A stretch of 64,000 nt of DNA from Nitrospirota bacterium. Lineage in GTDB: Bacteria > Nitrospirota > UBA9217. Positions 3,539 through 36,115 of the stretch are shown in pieces; position 1 is the stretch's first letter; every line of letters starts with the position of its first letter. A program made the translations under genes and the position numbers. The notes under the pieces were generated by a model. The model was not told the origin of the DNA, did not search any database, and was given only the letters and a program-made list of their open reading frames with translations. The stretch is from positions 256,001-320,000 of the forward strand of contig CAVVUN010000009.1 of NCBI GenBank assembly GCA_963751455.1, given 5' to 3'.

Positions 3539-3712
3539 TTATCCTCCAGCTTTAGTATAAAGTTACCGTATTCATGTTTCTTTGTCAAGGTCTAACGGCG
3601 CGAATCAATTGAGCTTTAGATGATGGACCAGCTGTAAAACGAATCGATAAAGTGGGGCCATTTTCTCTTATTTCTTGTAATTCGTTAGGGGCTTCTGTAT
3701 TATAAATTAGTT

Positions 3713-24625: not shown

Positions 24626-25015
24626 CTAATCGGATTTGACTACGCTTTTCTGCTGCAAGGACTTGAAGATCATATCGAGAACGTCCTTTTGTTTTCCCTC
24701 AAACTTGTTCAGCACAGCCAGGCAGCTTCCCATGGGAAACCGCTGATGCAGATAATCGGCATCGCGGCCTGAAAGGATAATGATCCGGTTCTTATTGATT
24801 CCCTTTGATGTGGCATACGAGAGAACTTTTCCGCCGTCAAGGCCGGGCATTTCAAGATCAACCAGCAGGAGGTCGAGGTCATTCGTGATCAATACGAGGC
24901 ATTTTATAGGATCATTGCAGGTGATAACATCAAGTCCCGGATAACGCTCCTCAACATATTCCTCAAGAATTCTTGAGAATGCCGGATCATCGTCGATTAA
25001 TAAAATCTTTCCCAT
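24626..25015 (-). CDS. single-domain response regulator
   Basis: ILLIDDD, LVDLEMPGLDG, IILSG. Confidence 0.85.
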   Translation of the reverse strand: MGKILLIDDDPAFSRILEEYVEERYPGLDVITCNDPIKCLVLITNDLDLLLVDLEMPGLDGGKVLSYATSKGINKNRIIILSGRDADYLHQRFPMGSCLAVLNKFEGKQKDVLDMIFKSLQQKSVVKSD

Positions 25016-25074
25016 GAGTGGTTCCTTTTAAAAAGAATGGCTAAGCAAGGGGCAATGTACTACTTTTGTATTCT

Positions 25075-25340
25075 TTAGGCAAGTATAATTAGAGCGAAGG
25101 CAGGAACTGCGAGGATCAAAGAGGATGCGGCCCACCACTGCGATTCAGGGTCGCTGCTCTTTCTTCTTTTTGCGGCAAGAATGGCGGCAGCAAGGCCGGC
25201 GAGGACACTGGCAAAGGCGATCACGACCGCGACCAATCCGCGCATGCGGCAAGTGAGCACATTGCCGGGATTGCGACCACGACAAAGAAGACAGTCGGTG
25301 AAACAGCGGGCAGTAGTATGTGTCGGATGAGAGGGGACAT
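25075..25340 (-). pseudogene. small membrane protein, frameshifted, probable former cassette gene
   Basis: MSPLIRHILLPAV.. joined by a frameshift to ..CRMRGLVAVVIAF..WWAASSLIL; preceded by GTTAAAG, ends GCCTAAA. Confidence 0.45.
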
Positions 25341-25428
25341 ACGTAACCCTTCAGAGGGCGGCTTTAACGCACGGGTGGACCGGCCGGTGAGCATTTTTGT
25401 ACGGCCTGTGCCTTTGCTTCTTTGTGTT

Positions 25429-25569
25429 ATGAAAAGCGAACACGTAATCAGGCCATTCAGGCCGTGAAAGAATTCGGTGGGAACCGGCGGTTTATCGTTT
25501 GATAGACCAGCCGATATGAAGGAGTGCCGTCAGGACGTTACGGGCTTTGGAGGAGGGCCATTGGCTCAT
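25429..25569 (-). pseudogene. hicA: HicA toxin pseudogene (premature TAA, truncated)
   Basis: Manual translation MSQWPSSKARNVLTALLHIGWSIKR*TAGSHRILSRPEWPDYVFAFH; ATGA overlap with hicB stop. Confidence 0.8.
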
Positions 25570-25766
25570 GCAGGCAGCGCAAAAAGCTCATCAAGTTCGG
25601 GAATGTTCTCCCCGTGATCCAGCCGATCTGCTATGATACGCAGTGCCAGTGCTTCAACTTTGGCAATTGCTTCTTCTCGTGTCTTTCCGTAAGCTAAAAC
25701 ACCCGGAAGATCAGAAACCTCGGCAATCCAACGACCATCTTCTTCTTTTTCAATATCTATCTTCAT
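25566..25766 (-). CDS. hicB: HicB-family antitoxin
   Basis: EKEEDGRWIAEVSDLPGVLAYGKTREEA. Confidence 0.9.
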   Translation of the reverse strand: MKIDIEKEEDGRWIAEVSDLPGVLAYGKTREEAIAKVEALALRIIADRLDHGENIPELDELFALPA

Positions 25767-25878
25767 TCTATTCTCCTCTGATGATAAATTTATCTGAATA
25801 TGGCGCTGATTGCAAGTCTAAATTTATCGTGGGCGGAGCGGCTTTTACACCTGGCTCGATCCGGATGAGACGACAAAA

Positions 25879-26440
25879 TTACGATTTAACCGCATAAGTT
25901 CCCTTGGGACTTAATGCACGCTTGTAATCTGAAATCGAGTGATATCCGTTCGCCGCAAGAATCAGGTCGTAACGCTGCCCATTTTGGGTGAAATCTTCTC
26001 TGGTGTAATCAATGACCTGGTCTGCGCCAATCGAGCGCACCATATCCAAATTCCTCGTACTGCACACGCCAGTCACTTTAGCTCCGAACGATTTGGCAAT
26101 CTGTACCGCAAACGTACCAACACCACCAGACGCACCATTAATCAAAACCTTTTGCCCTGGCTGAATCTGTCCTTTATCGCGAAGACCATGTAGGGCGGTG
26201 ACTGCCGCCACAGGTACGACCGCTGCTTCCTCGAACGATATATTGGCCGGTTTCAACGCCAATGCATTTTCACGGCACATACATACTCGGCAAAACCGCC
26301 CAAACCGCACTCGAATAAGTCCCCGAATACCTCATCACCCGGCTGAAACTGCCTTACGTTTCTGCCTACTACTTCCACCCGCCCCGCTATGTCAGATCCG
26401 AGTATCTTGTATTTTGGTTTTAGAAGCCCAGAGTGCAGGC
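25879..26440 (-). pseudogene. NAD(P)-dependent alcohol dehydrogenase/quinone reductase (MDR) fragment
   Basis: ILGSDIAG.V..VG, GGFAEY, VLINGASGGVGTFAVQIAK, ADQVIDY; both ends missing, frameshift. Confidence 0.8.
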
Positions 26441-26461
26441 GGGCCAAGAACGGGTCAGTTG

Positions 26462-26571
26462 GTAGGTTGGGTAGAACGAAGTGAAACCCAACGCTTTTTA
26501 GTTTTCAGATTACTCACCAATTGCCGAAACATTAAATCTGTCGGGTTTCGCAGCAGCTCTACCCGACCTAC
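26462..26571. repeat. inverted REP doublet
   Basis: GTAGGTTGGGTAGAACGAAGTGAAACCCAAC ... GTCGGGTTTCGCAGCAGCTCTACCCGACCTAC. Confidence 0.75.
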
Positions 26572-26682
26572 GAACTAATTTGTCAACATCAAAGATTCGA
26601 CCCCATGACCACGCATGACCACGTTAATCACCTTGTCCGATGTCAAGGGCAATCACTTTCTTGTTACGTTATTCTTACTACA

Positions 26683-29658
26683 TTAATTCTCAGGCTTCTT
26701 GACTGCTAAAAAATGAACGCCAGGTTCTGGCGGCACTAACCACGCGCCAATGGCCTCACCCTCTGTTGGTTGATAGCGATATGACTGGTGAGATTGAGCT
26801 GATGCCCCAATCTTCCAGCCATAACCCATCGATTCAAGCGTAAGCAACGGAGAAAACACGGCGTCATCTGTATCAACTAGACTGCGTCCGTTAAGATGGA
26901 ACGGGGCAATGCCTACTTGAGTGGCTTGTTCAGCCGCCGATAAGTTTCTCTTGCTTACCAGAGTGACATTTCGAGCGCGGAGTGATTTTAGCGCATCTGC
27001 TATTTCAAATTCCAATGTCTTAGGCGACTGTTGGAGACCATTTGCTTTTATGTGGGTTGTTTTACTTAACAGCAACCTTCTCATATGCAACAAATCGACC
27101 TGGGATTCGTTAACAAAGTCAAAGAGAATATTTAGTGGAATGTCACGCGAGTAAGGAAGCAACCCAATTTCGATATACGTTTGCTGTTCATTTTGAATTG
27201 CCGGAATGCAATTGGCCGCCTCGGTAAGTAATTGCTCCATAACTCCATGACCAGGACTTACACAGCCCACTCCTGAAGCAGGAACCAGAAGGAACTTTCC
27301 ACTCGCTAAAAAAGATTTCGCCTCAGTAATGAGAAATTTCATAACATCATTGGGCAACCATGAAGCATACCCCATCGCCATAAAGCGATGTCGTCCCGTT
27401 TTCGATTTCAATTCAGACCCGAGCGTTAATAGGTACCCAGCACCCCAAGGCCCAAACCAATTTCCATCGACCATGTGAAGAAACTTTCCAGATTTGGTTG
27501 GTCCTTTCCACAACAATAAGGTGAAATCTGCATATAAAGACCACAGTCTAAGCGCCTGCCTGATGTCCTCCAGTGATCGCACTTCGATTGTTACATTCAA
27601 TGAGTGTGGAAACGCTTGCAAGTTTCGGAGAATTTGTGCAAAGCAACCGCGGCCCCAATAGTCATAATCGAGCGCTGCCGCATTATAGTCATCTGCGGTA
27701 TCTTCCCACCATTTGACAACAGGGGCTACGGTCAATGCGTTTGCCTCATGTAAACTTAAAATGGGTTCTTCGCTAGGGTTTTCTATTTCTGAATCGCCAA
27801 GATAACGAGAAAAGCCTCTCGCTCGTTCAAGGGTCTCCTTAAAGACGTTTGGCCCTTGTCCTATGAGCGATATGTCAATTATTCGTTTGCGAAGTTCGAT
27901 GTTTGCTTCGACCCGCTTTATATAGTTTTCCTTGATTTTGCATAGCTTTTCATCTTCAGTCAAGCATTCGCCCAATTTAGTCATTGCGCTTTGAAGGCTA
28001 TCGTTCTGTCCGAGCTGTGAAGAATAATTAGCGATCAATCCTAATATTTCTAAATGAATATCCATTGGCACACTAATGCGCCCGGCAACCAAATGATATG
28101 CTTCTTGCGCCAATTCTAAAGCACGCTCAGTTTGCCCTTTGTCTGCAAGTGCCTCTGCCAAATTCATCTTAGCCATAAAGGAAGAATCGACCTCGGAGGC
28201 AAGATCTACGGCTATTTCAGCTTTTTCCACAGCTGTAGCTAAATCGCCTAACTGCCGCGAGATCACAGAAACCAACTGTGTAGTAGCGAACGTAATAGGC
28301 TCAGTCTCTGGTGACACAGCAATGTTCAAGAGTGATTTTGCTTTCTGTAGCGCCTCCTCAAGTCGTCCAGCTTGAAAGTTAACCAAAGCCACCGTGTAAA
28401 GTACGCCGGGTAGAAAGGCCTTACGTGTATCTGTTGAAACTTTGTCAGCTAAACGCAATGCCGCTTCAGACGCGGCTACTGCTGTACTATGACGTTTGGC
28501 GTGTGATGAATTATTTGCAACATTAATCAATTGCCCTGCAATACGCAGGGAGAGAAAGCTGTTACGCGCCGAAGCTTCCAACTCATGAATTCGAGATATA
28601 GCCGCATCTTCATCGCCTGACTTCACTGCCCAGTGAATCCCAGCGTTAAGGGCTGCTTGAAAAACCTCACCGTCAAGCATATCGGGATTGCGCTTTGCAT
28701 ATGTCTCAGCTAAGTTGAGATGCTCCTCGGCCTCACTAGAGCGGTTCGCATTGCACAGAAGATGTACGTACTCTGAACGGGCGACGCATAGTTGTTCGTC
28801 ACAACGCTCGATATTTGCAGGTAGGCTGGCCAATGCAATTGCTTCCAGATATGCAGATTCGGCCCCGTGAAAATCGCGCTTTTCCTCTAGATACGCACCA
28901 CGCGCTCGATGGTACATCACTAAAACGGGCACTTCCGTAATATCTTTATGCAAGGACTCAAGCCGTTGAAAGTAATATCCGCGATCACCTATGCCACCTC
29001 GGGCAGACGAAAGTAAGGATAGGCCAATTAGTACTTCAGCCTGTAAATGGACGAGCTTCTCAGTCTCAGCTATCACAAGTGCCTCTTCCATTGCCTCAAA
29101 TGCCTTACGTCTTTTGTCTTGATTGGCTAGTTCGGTCGCTCGCTTCAATAAAGAGCGTATTTTTGACTCAATTTGATTTGGCGATTTGGAAATTCCAAAT
29201 AGAGAAGATAGCTTCTCCGTCGTTAATTTTTCCAGTCGTTCCCATAGACCGTCAATTCCAAGGGCCTCGACACGAACGTCTGGGTTCACAGCGCTCAGCC
29301 GCGCTAATGTCTTTGCTGTAAGGTGCCCAACCTTGCCATCAGCGCTATTGTGAATAAACGTCCATACTTTGAGAGAACTACCAAGAGTGTCTTTTGCCTT
29401 ATTGAAGTCGGCTGCGACCTTGGAGGCCGTGCTACTATCAGTAGTGAGGCTAGGCGGGGCATAGAGTTGATAAACTCTTCCTTCTTTCAATGCCAACCCG
29501 TCGATGCCACCATCACCTCTTGTTACACGAATTGCCAAGAAGCAGTCTTCGCCGTGAAGAGCAATCGCAATTTTTTCAAACCAGTTTTGGAAGGCTTCCC
29601 CGTGAACACTGCGGAACTCTTCTCGATATTTAAGTTTAATGCCTTGTTCTAAGTCCAT
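26683..29658 (-). CDS. N-terminal restriction-endonuclease-like domain + TPR-like repeats + unknown C-terminal domain (991 aa; cassette gene)
   Basis: GEAFQ..F, GDGGIDG, VYQLYAP, K...DF.KA at the N-terminus; Ala/Leu-rich helical repeats aa ~165-600. Confidence 0.7.
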   Translation of the reverse strand: MDLEQGIKLKYREEFRSVHGEAFQNWFEKIAIALHGEDCFLAIRVTRGDGGIDGLALKEGRVYQLYAPPSLTTDSSTASKVAADFNKAKDTLGSSLKVWTFIHNSADGKVGHLTAKTLARLSAVNPDVRVEALGIDGLWERLEKLTTEKLSSLFGISKSPNQIESKIRSLLKRATELANQDKRRKAFEAMEEALVIAETEKLVHLQAEVLIGLSLLSSARGGIGDRGYYFQRLESLHKDITEVPVLVMYHRARGAYLEEKRDFHGAESAYLEAIALASLPANIERCDEQLCVARSEYVHLLCNANRSSEAEEHLNLAETYAKRNPDMLDGEVFQAALNAGIHWAVKSGDEDAAISRIHELEASARNSFLSLRIAGQLINVANNSSHAKRHSTAVAASEAALRLADKVSTDTRKAFLPGVLYTVALVNFQAGRLEEALQKAKSLLNIAVSPETEPITFATTQLVSVISRQLGDLATAVEKAEIAVDLASEVDSSFMAKMNLAEALADKGQTERALELAQEAYHLVAGRISVPMDIHLEILGLIANYSSQLGQNDSLQSAMTKLGECLTEDEKLCKIKENYIKRVEANIELRKRIIDISLIGQGPNVFKETLERARGFSRYLGDSEIENPSEEPILSLHEANALTVAPVVKWWEDTADDYNAAALDYDYWGRGCFAQILRNLQAFPHSLNVTIEVRSLEDIRQALRLWSLYADFTLLLWKGPTKSGKFLHMVDGNWFGPWGAGYLLTLGSELKSKTGRHRFMAMGYASWLPNDVMKFLITEAKSFLASGKFLLVPASGVGCVSPGHGVMEQLLTEAANCIPAIQNEQQTYIEIGLLPYSRDIPLNILFDFVNESQVDLLHMRRLLLSKTTHIKANGLQQSPKTLEFEIADALKSLRARNVTLVSKRNLSAAEQATQVGIAPFHLNGRSLVDTDDAVFSPLLTLESMGYGWKIGASAQSHQSYRYQPTEGEAIGAWLVPPEPGVHFLAVKKPEN

Positions 29659-29740
29659 CCGCTCTCCATGACGTATTTAGTCTATACATCTATACTGTAA
29701 AAAGCGCTTCAACGCTAATGTTCATCGTCAGCACAGGGAG

Positions 29741-29799
29741 GGGTAACATGCGGATGTGGGGCGTGATTCTCAACGACCCTTACGATCCGCTTGTTATGC
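29741..29799 (-). other. attC site (59 bp)
   Basis: Minus strand: GCATAAC AAGCGGATCGT...ACATCCGCAT GTTACCC; R'' contains the TAA stop of the upstream gene; extrahelical base in L''. Confidence 0.85.
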
Positions 29800-31581
29800 C
29801 TGCTCGATAAATAGCTCTGAACCTCTTTTTATAGATCGGTTGAACATAATACCGATCTCGCCGGAATGAGCCTCGTCAACGCTTTTATCGTCTATTTGTA
29901 TAGACTTCACAACAGCTACCGCGTAGCTTGAATTCTTTTTTACAATTATCTTCATGTTTCTTGTGATATGAATTCTATTGATGTTTTTTACGATCGCAAT
30001 TTTCCCATCCTGATAGTATTCTTCGGGAACGCCAATGGAAATAAGGTTTTCGGGTTTTAATTCAATTAATCCCACTTGAAACAATTTATTGCGGACATGT
30101 TCCTTAGTTATTATGCCGTCTTCAACCATGAAGTATGCTTTGTACAACTCAAAAGTTGTTAATAGGCCACGCTTATCCAAAAGCGCATCTCCTATCTGGA
30201 CGTCTGAAAAAGGAGGATTAAGCCTGCTGTGAGGAGGTATATAACGCTGATGATTAACTATATACAGCCCAAAAACATCAAACCGATTTCTCTGCTCGGC
30301 TCTTCGAAATCTAATTTTGGATATCTGTGAGCAATCCTTGTCTGTGGATGTGCCACTGATGCCCTTAACCTCGATAACAAGAAGTCCTTTTTCATTTTCT
30401 ACTTGCAAATCCTCTTCCTTAATTTCTAATTCCAACTCGTCCATGTTTACGACGGATTCAAAGCCTAACCAGTTAAGAAAATATTCGACTGCCTTTACAA
30501 GCTTATCGCCGGTTTCAAATATAAGTTCATGAAGAAAGTGATATTTAATTCTATTTTCACTTAGCAATCTATCCAAATCATGAATATCTTTTTGATATTT
30601 CTCTTCGAGATTTTTCTTAGCCTCAATAAGGGCATTTTCACCAGGGAGTAAATATTCTCCACTTTTTAGCCATCCGAATTGACCATGAAATGGAAACAAT
30701 TCTGGGTAAATTTCGGGAAGATAAACGTTGAGTAGGTCAGAAAGAAATTTTCCCTTATTCTTGATATCGGGAAAAACTAAAATCAATCCTTCGTCATAAA
30801 AGTGACTAAAACTAATTATTTCCCCATTATCATTGACTAACAATGGCAAGAAAGATTTCATTTTCACATTCTTTCCATCTTTCCATTCTGTCGGATGGGA
30901 AAAAACTATATTATAGGTTGAGCCATCCAGATATTTTTCAAGAAGTGGAGACAATTTAGTCTCACTCTCCGGAAGTTTTATTTTATTACCAGACTTATTT
31001 TTCGAGGATGGTAAGCCACTATAGAAATCAAGATTTGAATATTCTTTTTCGCTCGTAACATTAGCATAACGGTCATTAATTTCTACGAATTGATAAGAAA
31101 CGCTCTCTTCTTGAGGAGAGAAGCATATGACGACAGACTCTTTTTTTAGTATTTCTGCAATTTCTTTGGCGATGACATAAATAGACAGAGGCCTCGGATC
31201 GAAAATCGTTTGCGGATATTTGCAAAGTAGAGCATGTGCTTTTTTGTCCTTTGTTCGGTCTATGCTGTGATCATTATCTTTATACTCAATACTTTTCTCT
31301 CTAGTCATATCAAAAATGACTATGTCAAACTCGTGAAGATTTGCAGGAATTCGATAATTGAGCAATAAGAAATGTTCAGAATGGCGTTCGTTATTTGGAA
31401 CTTTTACGCAGGTTCCGGTACTTGCCACCTCATGCTTAAAAAGGTTTGAACTTAGAAGCTTCGAGACGTCATCATCAGTATCAAATAAACATATCAATGG
31501 CCTTTCATGAGGAGATGCGCTTTGAACCTGAGCATCTTTTATTGTTCCCAAAGTGTCTTTCTTTTTTTTCGTTTTAAACAT
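29794..31581 (-). CDS. PD-(D/E)xK nuclease with C-terminal EF-Tu domain II/U32-C-like beta-barrel (595 aa; cassette gene)
   Basis: TGDKLV.AV..FL..LGF, EEDLQV..LVIEVKG; C-terminal IG...YY...IAIV..VKSIQIDDKSVDEAHSGEIGI..IKRGSELF; very AT-rich. Confidence 0.7.
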   Translation of the reverse strand: MFKTKKKKDTLGTIKDAQVQSASPHERPLICLFDTDDDVSKLLSSNLFKHEVASTGTCVKVPNNERHSEHFLLLNYRIPANLHEFDIVIFDMTREKSIEYKDNDHSIDRTKDKKAHALLCKYPQTIFDPRPLSIYVIAKEIAEILKKESVVICFSPQEESVSYQFVEINDRYANVTSEKEYSNLDFYSGLPSSKNKSGNKIKLPESETKLSPLLEKYLDGSTYNIVFSHPTEWKDGKNVKMKSFLPLLVNDNGEIISFSHFYDEGLILVFPDIKNKGKFLSDLLNVYLPEIYPELFPFHGQFGWLKSGEYLLPGENALIEAKKNLEEKYQKDIHDLDRLLSENRIKYHFLHELIFETGDKLVKAVEYFLNWLGFESVVNMDELELEIKEEDLQVENEKGLLVIEVKGISGTSTDKDCSQISKIRFRRAEQRNRFDVFGLYIVNHQRYIPPHSRLNPPFSDVQIGDALLDKRGLLTTFELYKAYFMVEDGIITKEHVRNKLFQVGLIELKPENLISIGVPEEYYQDGKIAIVKNINRIHITRNMKIIVKKNSSYAVAVVKSIQIDDKSVDEAHSGEIGIMFNRSIKRGSELFIEQA

Positions 31582-31617
31582 TTTATCAAACCTCTATCAA
31601 CAATTTGCTCCGATAAC

Positions 31618-33425
31618 GAGTCTGTAGAAAAAGTCATTTTGCGAGAGATCTTTTTATCGCATCTCGTCTTTGATCCAACCTGTGTGCTCAGATTATCGGT
31701 TCGTTTTGATGATCTGCTTCGTGAGTGCCCCGGTTTCTATTCGGGTTGCCTTTCATTTACTGCTTTTTTGCTGCTCTTAACCATGCTTCTCACGCAAACC
31801 CCGGCCCGTATCGATGCACCTTCAGAAGATTGTGCACAATGCAGTAGAGCCGCCACTGGATGCTCACCTTCTTTTTCCCTCTGAGACTGAATCGATCCAG
31901 GCCGAGACTGGAACGGATGTCGGCAAAGACGGGTTCGACCGTCGCCATCCTTCTTCCATAGATCAGCTTGCCCGCTACCGAATCTATCTTCTCCCGCATC
32001 TTCTGCGTGAAGGTCTTGGTCTTGTTGCTCGGTCTTCCCGGTAAAGTGCGCGAACTGGCGGGTTACGGTCACATCGGGATTCTTCATGCACTTTGCTCTG
32101 AATTGGCAGGGGATGCAGTCTCTCTTGGTTCCATGGTACTTGATGGCGTGTAGTCCATTATGGATTGCGTTGCCGCTTTTGTACATCCGTTTCCCGGCCG
32201 GGCAGATGCAGAAGCTCTTGTCAGGGCTTACCGTGAAGTCGCGAGGCTGGAAGATGATGGCTCGGTCGAATCTTTTCGCGACCTCTTTATTGAACCGCTC
32301 CTTGTGTCGGTCCGCATCGGCGAACCGGGGATCGCGGTGACGGAATTTATTGTCTGCGATGTATGCGTCGATGCCGTCCTCGATTACCATCTCCACGTTC
32401 TTTTCGGAGTGGAAGCCGCTGTCGCTGGTCAGTTTGGTCTTTTTGAAGATGTCTTCTTCTTTCCCGATCGCCTTGAAGTTCTCCCGCGTTCCTTCGACCA
32501 TGGGTTTCAGTATTGCGGATTCGGAGTCTCCGGTCGCCTCTGCATGGACCACGACCTGATGCTTGCTGTCGACCATCGCTACGCCGTTGTAGCCCTGGAC
32601 GACGCCGTGGGAGGTCTTCATGTTGGCGCTTTCATTGTCGGTGATGTTGCTCTTCCTCGGTTTGCCCTTGCTGCCGGGCTTGTCGTCGTTTTCCTCGAGC
32701 CAGGCTTTGATCTTTTTGACCTTCGCCTTGAGGGTGGAAATGTATTGCTCTTCCTTCTCTATGACCGCCTTGTCGGTCTCGGTTTTGTCTCGTTCCTTAT
32801 GCTTGCGCGATGATCTGCCGGATGGCCTTTTCCATCTTCTCTTTTTTATGCTGGAGATCTTTCTTGGTTCCGCTCCATTCCTTTGAAGCATTCGAGGGGA
32901 GCTTGCAGCCGTCTACCGCGAACATCTCTTTGCCGATCAGGCCCATCTCGTCGCAGATAAGAAGGACTTCGAGGAAGAGCTTGATCGTTTCCTGGTCATG
33001 CGAGGAGATGAAGTCGGCTATCGTCGTGAAGTGCGGCCGGGTGTCGGCGGAGAGGGCCATGAAGATGACGTTCTCGTTGCAGCAGTCGGCGATCTTCCGG
33101 CTTGAGGTGATTCCCTTCGAATAGGCGTACAGGACGATCTTTAAGAGAATCCGGGGATCGTAGGCCGGGGCGCCGGTCTCGTCGTTCTTGTAGCGAAGGT
33201 CAAATGCGGAAAGGTCGAGTTCGTTGTCGATGAGATAATGAAGCGTGTGTTCGAAGGTGCCGTGAAGGATCTGTTTATCGAAGTTGATCGGAATGAACTT
33301 GCCTTGGGAATAATCGTACTCCTTGTATTTCGCCATACGCCTCCCGTGGGTGAGGGGTATTTGATGATTCCTTACAGCGTTTTGATGGCGTCATTATAGC
33401 ATAAAATGACTTTTCCTACAGGTTC
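31618..33425 (-). mobile_element. IS1182-family insertion sequence, 23-bp imperfect terminal inverted repeats, 3-bp AAC/GTT target duplication
   Basis: GAGTCTGTAGAAAAAGTCATTTT (31618-40) vs GAACCTGTAGGAAAAGTCATTTT (rc of 33403-25); AAC at 31615-17 and 33426-28. Confidence 0.9.
31790..33336 (-). CDS. IS1182 DDE transposase in three frameshifted pieces
   Basis: GAPAYDPRILLK..Y, PHFTTIADF, AVDGCKLPSNAS, TDNES..MK, GYN, DSGF, VEPVFA. Confidence 0.9.
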
Positions 33426-33480
33426 AACACGCGCCTGACGCGCCGCCTTTGGCGCGTCGCTGTCGAGGCGCACGTTAATA
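33426..33480 (-). other. attC site interrupted at R' by IS1182
   Basis: Minus strand: TATTAAC GTGCGCCTCGAC...GTCAGGCGCGT GTT[IS]GTTATCG. Confidence 0.85.
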
Positions 33481-33495
33481 CTCTCTAAAAATAAT

Positions 33496-34377
33496 TTATC
33501 TGGGGCCGCCGTGCTCCCAAGCCATAAAAAATAATAATTGCAGCGGAGAGGTTACAACGTCAAAAGCAACGGTCAGCGGCGTGCCTATGCTCCTTATAAC
33601 GAGAGGGTAATCATATATTTTCTCTGGTCGAAAAAGATAGAATTTTATCGGAAGAGGCTGTTTTTCCTGTGGCAAGATTGCCATCCATCCGCTTGTATCA
33701 AACTCTTTTAGAATAACTGCGTCTGATTTATAACAACATAGCGAATAATAGTATAAATGAGATCCGTCAGGTTTATAATTATAAGAAAAATCAGATGGAA
33801 GAATAATCGAAGGATAATGAAAATAGCTATGAAATGGCGGAATCGCTTCGACGTGTTGGGATCGTGAGCCCACAAGCGAGGAAGACTCGCGGTCTTTAAA
33901 GTAAGTGCCTATCACAGATGGTAGCTTGAATGTGACATTTAATTCCCAACTATTATTTTTATCAACTTTTATTGCGTAGAGATCAATTGGACTAATTAAG
34001 CTTTTAAATAATGCTTCATAGTTTGTTTTTATAAATGAATCAGGGTTTCCTGGAATATAAGAACCTTTTTCTTTTATAATAAGGAAGCCATCTAAAACCC
34101 CGGGAAAGGATTTATTTTCTTTTTGATCTTGTTTAATGTGAAATGGGACACAATAGGTTTTAAAATTTACGGCCTTCGATTCCCCATGAGAATCGTCAAT
34201 TTTCCCTTTATCATAGCTGACATAAATTTGATCAGCCTCGCCAATCATCAACTTCTCTGCTCTAACCCCTTGCTGATGGTTCCACAATAAAGTCGTGGCA
34301 CATCCGCTGCATACTGAAGAGATAAACAAAAAGAGACTAAATAGAAGTATCTTCCTTGGCTTCTTAAAATACGCCAT
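33496..34377 (-). CDS. hypothetical lipoprotein (cassette gene)
   Basis: Lipobox-like VCSGC/AT; C-terminal TPLTVAFDVVTSPLQ; AT-rich; followed by attC. Confidence 0.7.
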   Translation of the reverse strand: MAYFKKPRKILLFSLFLFISSVCSGCATTLLWNHQQGVRAEKLMIGEADQIYVSYDKGKIDDSHGESKAVNFKTYCVPFHIKQDQKENKSFPGVLDGFLIIKEKGSYIPGNPDSFIKTNYEALFKSLISPIDLYAIKVDKNNSWELNVTFKLPSVIGTYFKDRESSSLVGSRSQHVEAIPPFHSYFHYPSIILPSDFSYNYKPDGSHLYYYSLCCYKSDAVILKEFDTSGWMAILPQEKQPLPIKFYLFRPEKIYDYPLVIRSIGTPLTVAFDVVTSPLQLLFFMAWEHGGPR

Positions 34378-34408
34378 CGGGAACCTTTCATGACATGTCT
34401 AATGAAAA

Positions 34409-34503
34409 CATTAATGCGGCAGCTGAGCCATGACCCCGAAGGGGTTCTCCCGGCGTGGTTTTCGCGCCGGGTTAGGAGCGATGGCTCAGCTGCCGCATTC
34501 TCG
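34409..34503 (-). other. symmetrical attC-like element with perfect 19-bp arms (AAT...ATT core)
   Basis: AATGCGGCAGCTGAGCCAT (34413-31) / ATGGCTCAGCTGCCGCATT (34481-99) enclosing small hairpins. Confidence 0.6.
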
Positions 34504-34518
34504 CGGCGCGAAGCGCCG

Positions 34519-34571
34519 GGAGAATCGCGCCGGTCACGCGCCGTCCGACGCTGTGGACCGGCAGGTTGGAA
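34519..34571 (-). other. short attC site (53 bp) of a gene-less cassette
   Basis: Minus strand: TTCCAAC CTGCCGGTCCAC...GTGACCGGCGCG ATTCTCC; extrahelical C. Confidence 0.7.
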
Positions 34572-34582
34572 CTTATTATATT

Positions 34583-34680
34583 TTGCAATGCAGCAGCTAA
34601 GCCTTACTTGATAGCGACCGACGGAGAGGTAGCGCAAAAAGCGAAGCTGTCAAGCGTCGGGCTCCAACTGATTGTTAGAG
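34583..34680 (-). other. attC site (98 bp)
   Basis: Minus strand: CTCTAAC AATCA GTTGGAGC ... GCTTAGC TGCTGC ATTGCAA; overlaps the 3' end of the HEPN gene. Confidence 0.75.
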
Positions 34681-35393
34681 AGAGCATTTTCATGTTTGGC
34701 TATTTCTTCTTTCAGCTCGTGAGCTCTAGCCGCAATATCTTTCCGTATACAATCTAAAACATACTTGTAACTATCCTCTCCAAACATTGATGTGGAGTAT
34801 GCGAGCGCTCCGAATAGCAAACTATATTTATTGATGATACTAATGGCTCGTTCCAAGAGAACTTCGATTTCAGCAAATTTCAACGGATCGAGCACGACAC
34901 TGTTCGGAGAAAGCGTTTCTTGCGGGTTTCTGTGCGCGCCTATATTATTCCTCCAGGCAAGGAGATGACGGACCCGGGGGTCTGCGCTAGACACAAAGGC
35001 AATGTCCGACTTCAGTTCATCCTTATCGGGTATTCGAGAGTCATTTGCCAAGCTTTCAACGAAAGGATTGTCTTTCAGCCTTTTAATAAATTCTGGAGTA
35101 TCGAATATGTGTAGGTTGGCTTGGATTGTTGCCAGAAGGCGCGGGAGGCTAAGAGATGATGTATGAGAATCGTAAGCACGACACAATCGCAACAAGGTTG
35201 CATCTACCTGGGCATCTATGGCCAGATTCCAGAAAGCGGCGGATTGATTTAGTTCGGTGACGTATTCGGGTATTGCGTTGTTAAGATTTTGATACAAATG
35301 GAAATGGACATGTGCATCAACGATGTCTCGGGCCAAGCCTTTCATCAGCGAGTCGAATTCTGCCGAGTTCTTTATTCGCATCGGCTTACTCAT
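34650..35393 (-). CDS. HEPN-domain protein (AbiU2-like; cassette gene)
   Basis: LLRLCRAYD....SL..L and Rx5H motif WRNNIGAH; predicted all-helical. Confidence 0.75.
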   Translation of the reverse strand: MSKPMRIKNSAEFDSLMKGLARDIVDAHVHFHLYQNLNNAIPEYVTELNQSAAFWNLAIDAQVDATLLRLCRAYDSHTSSLSLPRLLATIQANLHIFDTPEFIKRLKDNPFVESLANDSRIPDKDELKSDIAFVSSADPRVRHLLAWRNNIGAHRNPQETLSPNSVVLDPLKFAEIEVLLERAISIINKYSLLFGALAYSTSMFGEDSYKYVLDCIRKDIAARAHELKEEIAKHENALSNNQLEPDA

Positions 35394-35402
35394 GACTGTT
35401 CT

Positions 35403-35486
35403 CCCTAATGTTTAGGCTTCTTTCCGAGCGCCAAAAACGAAGTCCAAGTCTCGGGGCGCTCTCGCTCAGAAAGAAGCTGGTTGGAC
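35403..35486 (-). other. attC-like site at the IS91 end
   Basis: Minus strand: GTCCAAC CAGCTTCTTTCTGAGCG...CGCTCGGAAAGAAGCC TAAAC ATTAGGG; left spacer shortened. Confidence 0.6.
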
Positions 35487-36010
35487 TAAGCCGTTCGCGC
35501 GCCACGGTCTATGGAATTTCAAATGATTTCGCTTTTAAAGATTGGTCAATCTGAGCAGTGTATCCGGGGGCATGAGATGTTTTGCGAGGTCTGTTCCGGT
35601 GAAAAGCGGCACTTCCGGACAAATCCGCAAGCCCCTTTCATTGACGACTATACAGGAATCGAGGCTTTTGGGCAATAGGATATCGTTGCGAAACACAAGG
35701 CTGTTTTCGGGGATTGGGCACCGTGTCAGGTTATCGCGTTCGAGTGCGGTCGTCATATACGCGGAGGTCCTTTACAGCGCGCGGGCAGTATCGTCTCCGT
35801 TCTCATCGTTCGTTCCCCACAGTTCGGGCACTTGCCGACTTCGAACCCGGTAAGTCGAAGCAGTCGCTCCTGCCAGGTCTCGGTCTTCTCTTCCGGCTGC
35901 TTTCGCTCAGCCGTCTCAGCCCCAAGAAGCTCCCTTGCCCGCTCGATTTTCATCCTCCGGCATCGATTTCCCAAAAATCCGTAGTGCCTGATCTTGACGA
36001 ACCTGTGACT
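35487..36010 (-). mobile_element. IS91-family remnant (transposase C-terminus and downstream end)
   Basis: FVKIRHYGFLGNR...CPNCG..M...GPP; oriIS-like TTTGAAATTCCATAG near 35508-35525. Confidence 0.75.
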
Positions 36011-36060
36011 TAAAATCTCCATTGATCAGGAGTAAGAATACCAGAATCTAATAATTCCCC

Positions 36061-36076
36061 TATGACCTGGGTCATA
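36061..36076 (-). promoter_or_regulatory. Crp/Fnr-type palindromic site
   Basis: TATGAC-CTGG-GTCATA; TATTCT ~29 nt downstream on the minus strand. Confidence 0.45.
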
Positions 36077-36115
36077 CGTATGGAGACAAAAGCGAGCTAC
36101 GCGGCTCAGGAGATT

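Follow-up and report, generated by a model that had tools for sequence, protein, structure and literature searches.

An integron cassette array without an integrase starts at the end of an IS91-family element and carries predicted anti-phage genes in a Nitrospirota genome

Most clusters of attC sites lacking an integron integrase (CALINs) have no intI pseudogene nearby (10.1101/2022.09.11.507474), and how such integrase-less arrays originate is an open question. The locus described here raises this question in concrete form: how did cassettes come to be assembled at a site where no integrase is encoded, and what might their genes do for the host? It lies in a 64,000-nucleotide stretch (the window; C9:256001-320000, C numbers denoting contigs) of a Nitrospirota assembly of 5.72 Mb in 15 contigs, with a marker-gene completeness of 100% and a contamination of 5.4%. 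On the minus strand, the remnant and end of an element of the IS91 insertion sequence (IS) family are followed by cassette 1 (a HEPN gene), an empty 64-bp cassette, a 110-bp gene-less mini-cassette and cassette 2 (293 aa), and then, past an IS1182 element lodged in the attC of cassette 2, by cassette 3 (595 aa), by cassette 4, which encodes 991 aa and retains no more of its attC than the R'' box, and by a dispersed repeat resembling repetitive extragenic palindromic (REP) sequences. On balance, we favour the reading that this CALIN was built by an integrase encoded elsewhere, acting where the IS91 element ends in a hairpin, that the outward promoter of this end would drive the cassettes, and that three of them encode predicted anti-phage toxins.

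The integron cassette array is real, and it is decaying. The original prediction, made from the letters of the window, had placed four co-oriented, AT-rich minus-strand genes among six attC-type palindromes at 35403-486, 34583-680, 34519-571, 34409-503, 33426-480 and 29741-799. All four genes do lie on the minus strand, and the six palindromes and the five heptamer pairs around the cassettes are found as described; only two of the genes are clearly AT-rich (G+C of 45, 38, 36 and 46% vs 49% in the window). A covariance model, R1, was built from the aligned bottom strands of 39 short, clear attC-like sites, chosen by eye among the 117 candidates of a genome pattern scan and all located outside the window, and this alignment holds compensatory changes in 11 of its 16 pairs. 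In the window, R1 matched the bottom strand at 33422-33480 (68.8 bits), 34519-34571 (47.1 bits) and 29741-29799 (43.1 bits), the next best match reaching 12.4 bits. Both attC model matches (43-69 bits at three sites) and bottom-strand hairpins, whose joint absence the prediction had named as telling against it, are present. R''/R' cores, an L box with an extrahelical base and a bottom-strand fold characterize these three sites and not the other three, and their attC-type fold probabilities were 0.39, 0.87 (29741-799) and 0.09, compared with a median of 0.38 in 53 reference candidates. R1 gave no match at 35403-486, 34583-680, 34409-503 or the R'' of cassette 4; as it was trained on sites of 51-66 bp only, it is not a fair test of longer sites, and its silence there is weak evidence. 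The fold probability fell to 1e-5 for 34583-680 and to 1e-7 for 35403-486.

Half of the six sites therefore stand as attC, namely 34519-571, 33422-480 and 29741-799, while 34583-680 is a decayed site, 34409-503 belongs to the mini-cassette and 35403-486 is the IS91 end; the decayed site, the mini-cassette and the IS91 end as first site had escaped the prediction. The decayed long attC of cassette 1 (34583..34680, minus strand, as are all sites below) retains visible R'' and L'' boxes, with the crossover A|TT at 34589/34588. Behind it, the empty cassette (34519..34588) consists of an 18-bp spacer and a canonical short attC at 34571-34519 (R'/R'' 3/4). The canonical attC of cassette 2 (33426..33480) is split at its GTT by the IS, that of cassette 3 (29741..29799) is also canonical and has its crossover G|TT at 29747/29746, and cassette 4 keeps an R'' box at 26663..26669, the remainder of its attC being missing. 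Additionally, the proposed complementarity between cassette starts and the R'' boxes behind them was recovered: when the four bases behind each NTT are set against the complement of the R'' downstream, 13 of 20 positions agree, and the true pairing is the only one to reach 13 among 120 permutations (mean 6.8). With three co-oriented attC sites 1.0 and 3.6 kb apart and no intI near, the CALIN reading was borne out.

The head of this array is the end of an IS91 element. A 3' remnant of an IS91-family (HUH, Y2) transposase gene lies at 35753..36022 on the minus strand (NF033538, E 6.5e-12), the recombinase gene and left end of the element being gone. It is followed by a predicted outward sigma-70-type promoter, TTGCCC-17-TATAGT (35647..35675, minus strand, 9/12 match), which faces the cassettes, by a motif at 35509..35523 (minus strand) that is conserved across 26 aligned ends and that we take, from IS91/ISCR ends, to be oriIS-like, and by the right-end hairpin (35403..35486, minus strand), which is attC-like without a canonical L box and has its crossover A|TT between 35409 and 35408. 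The cassettes start exactly at this end; the data are silent on which came first. No match to the PF04986 profile was found in the genome itself, nor in the control genomes, and a tblastn search of the genome with the remnant returned only the remnant.

Relatives supply what the window has lost. DNA of the remnant was matched in 27 of 400 other genomes of the phylum, 24 of them among the 63 genomes of the same family, and the full elements found there encode a 285-aa tyrosine recombinase (PF00589 and PF13495) upstream of a 397-aa Y2 HUH transposase (PF04986 and PF14319). These relatives share the end with the window, in which only the 3' remnant is left. Almost all distinct right ends (27 of 29) break off at A|TT or G|TT, past which the DNA is unrelated. 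The start of complete elements is TTGAACTAAGCCG-like; their left ends begin at N|TT and are complementary to the R'' region of the right end, so that a circle would rebuild one hairpin. At locus L074 the element interrupts a transporter gene in frame and without target duplication, and at L073 it sits at the G|TT of an attC. By the strict pattern, the TTGCCC-17-TATAGT box is present in 18 of 26 element ends, 171-183 bases ahead of the terminus, with variants in six more and the region missing in two, and several element remnants begin just upstream of it; region-wide, promoter-type patterns (16 matches vs 13.8 by chance) are not above expectation. Similarly to the two-gene IS91 subgroup and ISCR elements, this element combines a HUH/Y2 transposase, an oriIS-like end and a predicted outward promoter; unlike them, elements of this kind re-form an attC-like hairpin from their two ends and go into N|TT with no target duplication, and the window keeps the right end only. 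Outward promoters are known from ISCR-like elements in the accessible part of PMC9330008, and the accessible part of PMC8138268 does not mention IS91.

Cassettes recur behind such ends. Among 20 fetched stretches, 19 of which have a recognizable end, R1 detected co-oriented attC sites downstream of the end in nine and upstream in two; of the six loci that combine a downstream array with readable upstream DNA, only L073 has an upstream attC. As a control, R1 gave 0 matches in 77 kb of sequence that surrounds, in 24 relatives, the cupin gene bordering the block in the window. Of 36 positions compared between the four bases that follow the end and the next detected R'', 24 are complementary (mean 13.7, p 1.5e-4, 20,000 shuffles), a test in which the detected site is probably not the nearest one at three loci and the compared ends are kin, not independent. 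Because it ends at A|TT, keeps the promoter-like box and has cassettes behind it at 9 of 19 loci, the IS91 end likely seeds arrays.

Some of these loci hold observations of their own. At L069 (G173:C1) two ends lie 2.7 kb apart, at 3660 and 6369, with a complete element between them and then one empty cassette and further ones. A contig end at L039 (G224:C55) joins the right end directly to a left end, which fits a circle or a tandem copy. The hairpin of the IS91 end at L051 (G161:C318) is swapped for the architecture of the mini-cassette (inverted arm, hairpin, attC, A|TT), which suggests exchange between the two types. In the assembly that holds the window, an isolated piece of an IS91 end at C1:5283-5369, downstream of a host gene, comprises only the promoter-like box.

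As predicted, the window holds no intI, since TIGR02249, searched over the whole genome, had no match in it. The same search gave two loci over the cut-off elsewhere, and by translation six intI copies were recognized, all of them broken. One (C1:553957) stops right after H-x-x-R, beside a gene whose N-terminus we take to be REP-transposase-like; another (C2:446969) carries an in-frame insertion of ~110 bases, with a TGA at 448358-448360 in our own translation; the third (C3:356.5-358.1k) has frameshifts and a 147-base repeat insertion; and C1:32057, C1:612827 and C12:96281-96810 are fragments. The two inserted repeats differ, that at C2:448265-448374 (~110 bases) having 14 diverged other matches and that at C3:357431-357580 (147 bases) six near-identical other copies. 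With these copies truncated, interrupted or frameshifted, a complete active integron with an intact intI, in cis or elsewhere in the genome, was not found in the assembly; given its 15 contigs, a copy in a gap is possible. R1 matched 78 of 150 scored candidates genome-wide, the best 72 of which fall in 23 places, 16 of them multi-site, and six attC clusters adjoin the broken intI copies. In view of the ~23 clusters or single sites and the six broken copies, the array of the window is one of many in this genome and probably no longer shuffles. Barring an intI in an assembly gap, it was probably assembled in trans and, all six intI copies being broken, is now frozen. The array resembles a CALIN in its co-oriented single-gene cassettes, its bottom-strand attC folds and the lack of a nearby intI, and differs in being headed by an IS91-element end with a predicted promoter and in the lack of any intact intI found in the assembly. 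The genome as a whole, with its ~23 attC clusters or single sites and no intact intI found, appears to be one of frozen arrays. Open reading frames of intron-type reverse transcriptases also lie among attC sites, at C3:359984-361348 and C2:443251-444516.

The array belongs to a block of ~11 kb (~25,000-36,100) between a cupin gene and a receiver-domain gene. In 7 of the 24 relatives examined, no more than 1.5 kb separates these two genes, against 11 kb in the window, and the kinase-cupin-receiver-HPP order of the window is kept in one relative. As the cupin and receiver genes are neighbors in relatives, the block is a clean insertion.

Taken in sequence, the events that we favour would begin with the element inserting behind the cupin gene, at an N|TT site. 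IntI of an integron then intact elsewhere in the genome would have added cassettes at or behind the A|TT end, and the left part of the element would later have been lost, with promoter and hairpin retained. The mini-cassette and the IS1182 element would have landed in attC sites, and decay of two attC sites and breakage of the intI genes would have left the array frozen. Several points tell against this course. The head site at 35403-486 lacks an attC-like fold; 10 of the 19 element ends have no downstream attC; the promoter is predicted from a pattern match only; and, with the left flank of the element in the window deleted, the element-first order is not established.

It is possible, though unlikely, that the array is instead an ordinary CALIN, a fragment of a complete integron whose intI and attI were deleted or left behind, with the IS91 element as a parasite that settled before existing cassettes and a deletion that took the true head. 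Six attC clusters in this very genome adjoin broken intI copies, an attC was indeed the insertion site at L073, where the element sits at G|TT, and the complementarity between end and R'' fits such a history equally well; loss of intI and transposon-mediated rearrangement are also named as CALIN origins in the accessible text of 10.1101/2022.09.11.507474. An upstream attC would then be expected more widely than in one of the six loci of relatives at which an array lies downstream and the DNA upstream can be read. Nor was a remnant of intI or attI seen between the cupin gene and the IS91 remnant, and the block has inserted cleanly between two genes that adjoin each other in relatives.

The second part of the question concerns the cargo, for which the original prediction had named a HEPN protein, a nuclease with an EF-Tu barrel and a nuclease with tetratricopeptide repeats (TPRs). 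A Pfam profile, structure comparison and a match of the nuclease head, respectively, bear these labels out. Cassette 1 (34650..35393, minus strand, 247 aa) encodes a HEPN_AbiU2 protein (PF18734, E 1.5e-27, above the cut-off) with an R-x5-H motif, of the R-x4-6-H type expected for HEPN domains of the AbiU2 kind, and is predicted from these features to be an RNase toxin; only one partial relative occurs in 400 genomes. A stand-alone HEPN_AbiU2 cassette of Vibrio mimicus confers resistance to T4 and T7 according to the accessible text of 10.64898/2026.03.17.712381, and we judge a defence role of cassette 1 likely. Cassette 2 (33496..34377, minus strand, 293 aa) encodes an orphan with a start that by eye resembles a signal peptide or lipobox. 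It belongs to no Pfam, NCBIfam or PADLOC family and found itself alone among 404 candidates, and a role in defence is, in our judgement, very doubtful.

Cassette 3 (29794..31581, minus strand, 595 aa) encodes a protein whose model (predicted local distance difference test score, pLDDT, of 85) combines a GATase-like fold at residues 28-296 (Z 11.5, root-mean-square deviation (rmsd) 3.3, 177 aligned), a coiled coil, a FokI-type PD-(D/E)xK cleavage domain at 347-508 (Z 12.7, rmsd 3.1, 142 aligned) and a barrel like domain II of EF-Tu and other translation factors at 513-595 (Z 10.6, rmsd 2.5, 80 aligned). The catalytic-type residues E389, E390, D391, E404 and K406 are invariant in 57 homologues, and the modelled fold predicts a DNase. 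The family is large, with 753 relatives among 7,996 scored. From 80 metagenome loci, 74 were scorable (one lacked the open reading frame and five were too short); an attC lies right behind the stop in 14 of these 74, two of them duplicates, compared with 3 of 740 shuffles. In 8 of 29 long loci a near-full-length restriction, CBASS, PD-T4-10 or PDC gene is a neighbor, which lends modest support to a defence role of the family. On plasmids, two homologues stand by themselves, one of them flanked by copies of IS1. A PDB sequence search with the alignment of this family gave nothing significant, and an Atlas search with the protein returned unnamed clusters only. We judge a defence role of cassette 3 somewhat more probable than its absence. 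Separately, the idea that the protein is AbiU1 of a split AbiU system was dropped, there being no AIPR-type Pfam match in the four genes or the 57 homologues, and AbiU1 belongs to the AIPR/ParB family according to the accessible part of PMC3632139. Compared with lactococcal AbiU, the array shares the AbiU2-type HEPN of cassette 1, and AbiU1 also superposes on FokI (PMC13064643, accessible part); the 595-aa family is set apart by its family profile, without an AIPR/ParB Pfam match in 57 members, and the genes lie in separate cassettes.

Cassette 4 (26683..29658, minus strand, 991 aa) encodes a protein with a Lamassu/Cap4-type nuclease head (residues 3-157), which matches 'ABC-three component system protein' at E 4e-14, a TPR solenoid that follows the head directly (157-588) and a conserved, unnamed C-terminal domain (model pLDDT 81); on this architecture it is a predicted immune receptor. 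It has 35 relatives, and the C-terminal domain finds 180 representatives. The head varies among 44 long relatives (Mrr in three, DUF4365 in one, PNP in six, TIR in one, kinase in two and the type of cassette 4 itself in nine), and HNH heads one of 23 scanned relatives, P0153 carrying TIR plus HNH. Avs-like receptors likewise have swappable N-terminal effectors with a TPR solenoid. Unlike Avs and other STAND proteins, the 991-aa family has no central STAND NTPase, with Walker A in none of 45 proteins and an NTPase Pfam match in none of 44, and carries the conserved C-terminal domain instead. With Lamassu it has the effector head only in common, no SMC/ABC ATPase partner gene being present in the array. 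Fold searches with the whole model were filled by TPR matches and barely tested the C-terminal domain (~620-991), for which Atlas gave no usable match, and no relative of the protein was found in viral contigs. The swapped heads are among the domains listed as reused across defence systems in the accessible text of 10.1101/2025.09.30.679545. Of the four genes, this is the one for which we hold a defence role with good confidence. A distant 976-aa relative with a nuclease head, TPRs and the same C-terminal domain, the only one in 400 phylum genomes, stands alone at L219 (G244:C17, 6583-9513), with no attC by eye.

Three of the four cargo genes are thus predicted, from domain content and motifs, to be single-gene anti-phage toxins, two of them from unnamed families, as neither the 595-aa nor the 991-aa architecture matches a Pfam, NCBIfam or PADLOC family. 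In the proposed course, the HEPN protein would cleave RNA; the 595-aa protein, on sensing infection through its barrel or GATase-like domain, would cleave DNA; and the TPRs of the 991-aa protein would sense a phage protein and release the nuclease head, so that the infected cell would be killed or arrested. Defence cassettes in sedentary and mobile integrons have been published (10.1101/2024.07.02.601686; 10.1101/2024.07.02.601719; 10.64898/2026.03.17.712381; each in its accessible part), and the array resembles them in its single-gene cassettes and its HEPN and Mrr-type nuclease domains, one HEPN_AbiU2 cassette being protective; it differs in that cassettes 3 and 4 are long (1.9 and 3.1 kb) and have architectures outside known families. 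The main text of the first of these reports contains neither 'TPR' nor 'EF-Tu', and the accessible text of the third does not contain 'TPR'. Our literature search found the IS91 head and the two nuclease families undescribed, with most subscription papers and bioRxiv supplements outside its reach, and the gene lists in supplements on integron defence could hold homologues.

The defence bank of the original prediction is therefore plausible for three genes, given their domain content, effector swapping and published precedent, and not for the 293-aa gene, which carries no defence signal. Several results weaken even this narrower claim: none of the four genes matches a PADLOC model (best E 0.015); lactococcal AbiU2 was dispensable and itself reduced activity (PMC13064643, accessible part); 60 of 74 homologues of the 595-aa protein have no attC by the detector used; PADLOC matches at 1e-10 among their nearest genes (20 of 137) exceed by a small gap those in the control (4 of 48 genes of the window, each of them a partial-domain match); and the 29 loci were hand-picked from 80, some of them related.

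A mixed, unselected accumulation of cassettes, in which the nucleases are toxins or addiction genes and not phage defence, is distinctly unlikely. It would accommodate the lack of PADLOC matches, the one orphan lipoprotein-like gene, the weak enrichment of neighbors, and the site decay and IS insertion. It sits poorly with four reading frames that are all intact while the IS and the intI copies are broken, with the lack of an antitoxin partner in any cassette, and with the swapping of effectors drawn from domains that recur across defence systems (10.1101/2025.09.30.679545, accessible part). That the palindromes are terminators or REP-like repeats of an ordinary island is most improbable: three of the six sites do fail R1 and a REP-like repeat closes the block, yet conserved AAC/GTT, the extrahelical base, covariation and the one permutation in 120 speak for attC, and the same sites flank intI elsewhere in the genome.

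The remaining parts of the block show how the array has been modified. The 110-bp mini-cassette (34415..34524, minus strand) contains no gene and consists of a hairpin, an inverted copy of its own attC arm, a second hairpin and an attC ending A|TT, with L'' lost. Nine copies occur in the genome. Further copies are present in 10 of the 63 genomes of the family and in records whose titles name Desulfuromonadales, Ignavibacteriales and Desulfonema, and 20 of 24 distinct copies sit, by eye, behind an attC end. In every one of 138 cells from 14 full-length copies, the inverted arm is paired with the right arm, with compensatory changes in 6 of 10 pairs (0/500 shuffles), and this pairing (100%) is stricter than that of the mini-cassette's own L'' and L' (88.5%). 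The gene-less integron cassettes described in the accessible text of 10.1101/2023.11.21.568050 likewise lack an open reading frame and insert at G|TT behind an attC; the mini-cassette differs in its length of 110-136 bp, its near-complete self-complementarity, its inverted own attC arm and its A|TT end. A different gene-less hairpin unit, with an ATAT-type core and not TTCTC, lies behind an attC at L016 (C15:277267-277460). At L168 (C1:23841), a mini-cassette stands behind an attC halved by an apparent end of a group II intron, which we take to be one from its motif.

The IS1182-family element (31618..33425, minus strand), with its transposase in three frames (NF033551, E 1.9e-30 and 1.1e-25), inserted in the GTT of the site at 33422-480. 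It has terminal inverted repeats, and the 3-bp GTT is duplicated (33428-26 and 31617-15); the NF033551 pieces are under the whole-protein cut-off because of the frameshifts. A second IS1182 (C12:53358-55146, 79% identical) starts inside an attC-like site, has lost its left end and ends before GTT. A preference of IS1182 for attC is possible, the second copy being too little to decide. The array is closed by a dispersed repeat with GTAG-ended hairpins (26462..26607, no strand assigned), presumably like the ends of REP or REP-associated tyrosine transposase (RAYT) elements, with copies on C2, C3, C6, C8, C12 and C15. The remainder of the block (25400-26447) holds hicB, next to it a hicA-like gene that is short or broken, and a frameshifted zinc-binding dehydrogenase gene, and an Rfam scan of the window returned 0 matches.

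Since CALINs and defence cassettes were already known, the array by itself is ordinary. Tentatively, we propose that the right end of the recombinase-bearing IS91 element may act as a portable integron head: once placed in ordinary DNA, it would offer a promoter and an A|TT landing hairpin and gather cassettes with the integrase in trans, which would be an undescribed origin of CALINs. On this reading, the array may also hold two new families of single-gene immune systems. One would be a TPR receptor that swaps effectors, lacks an NTPase and has a novel C-terminal domain, and the other a nuclease of the FokI type under the control of a barrel that mimics EF-Tu. For the origin of CALINs, this locus and its relatives supply a specific candidate head of ~300 bp. 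For the cargo, they supply two widespread, unannotated families, of 753 and 180 relatives, in which the catalytic residues are clear and the architecture is of an immune type.

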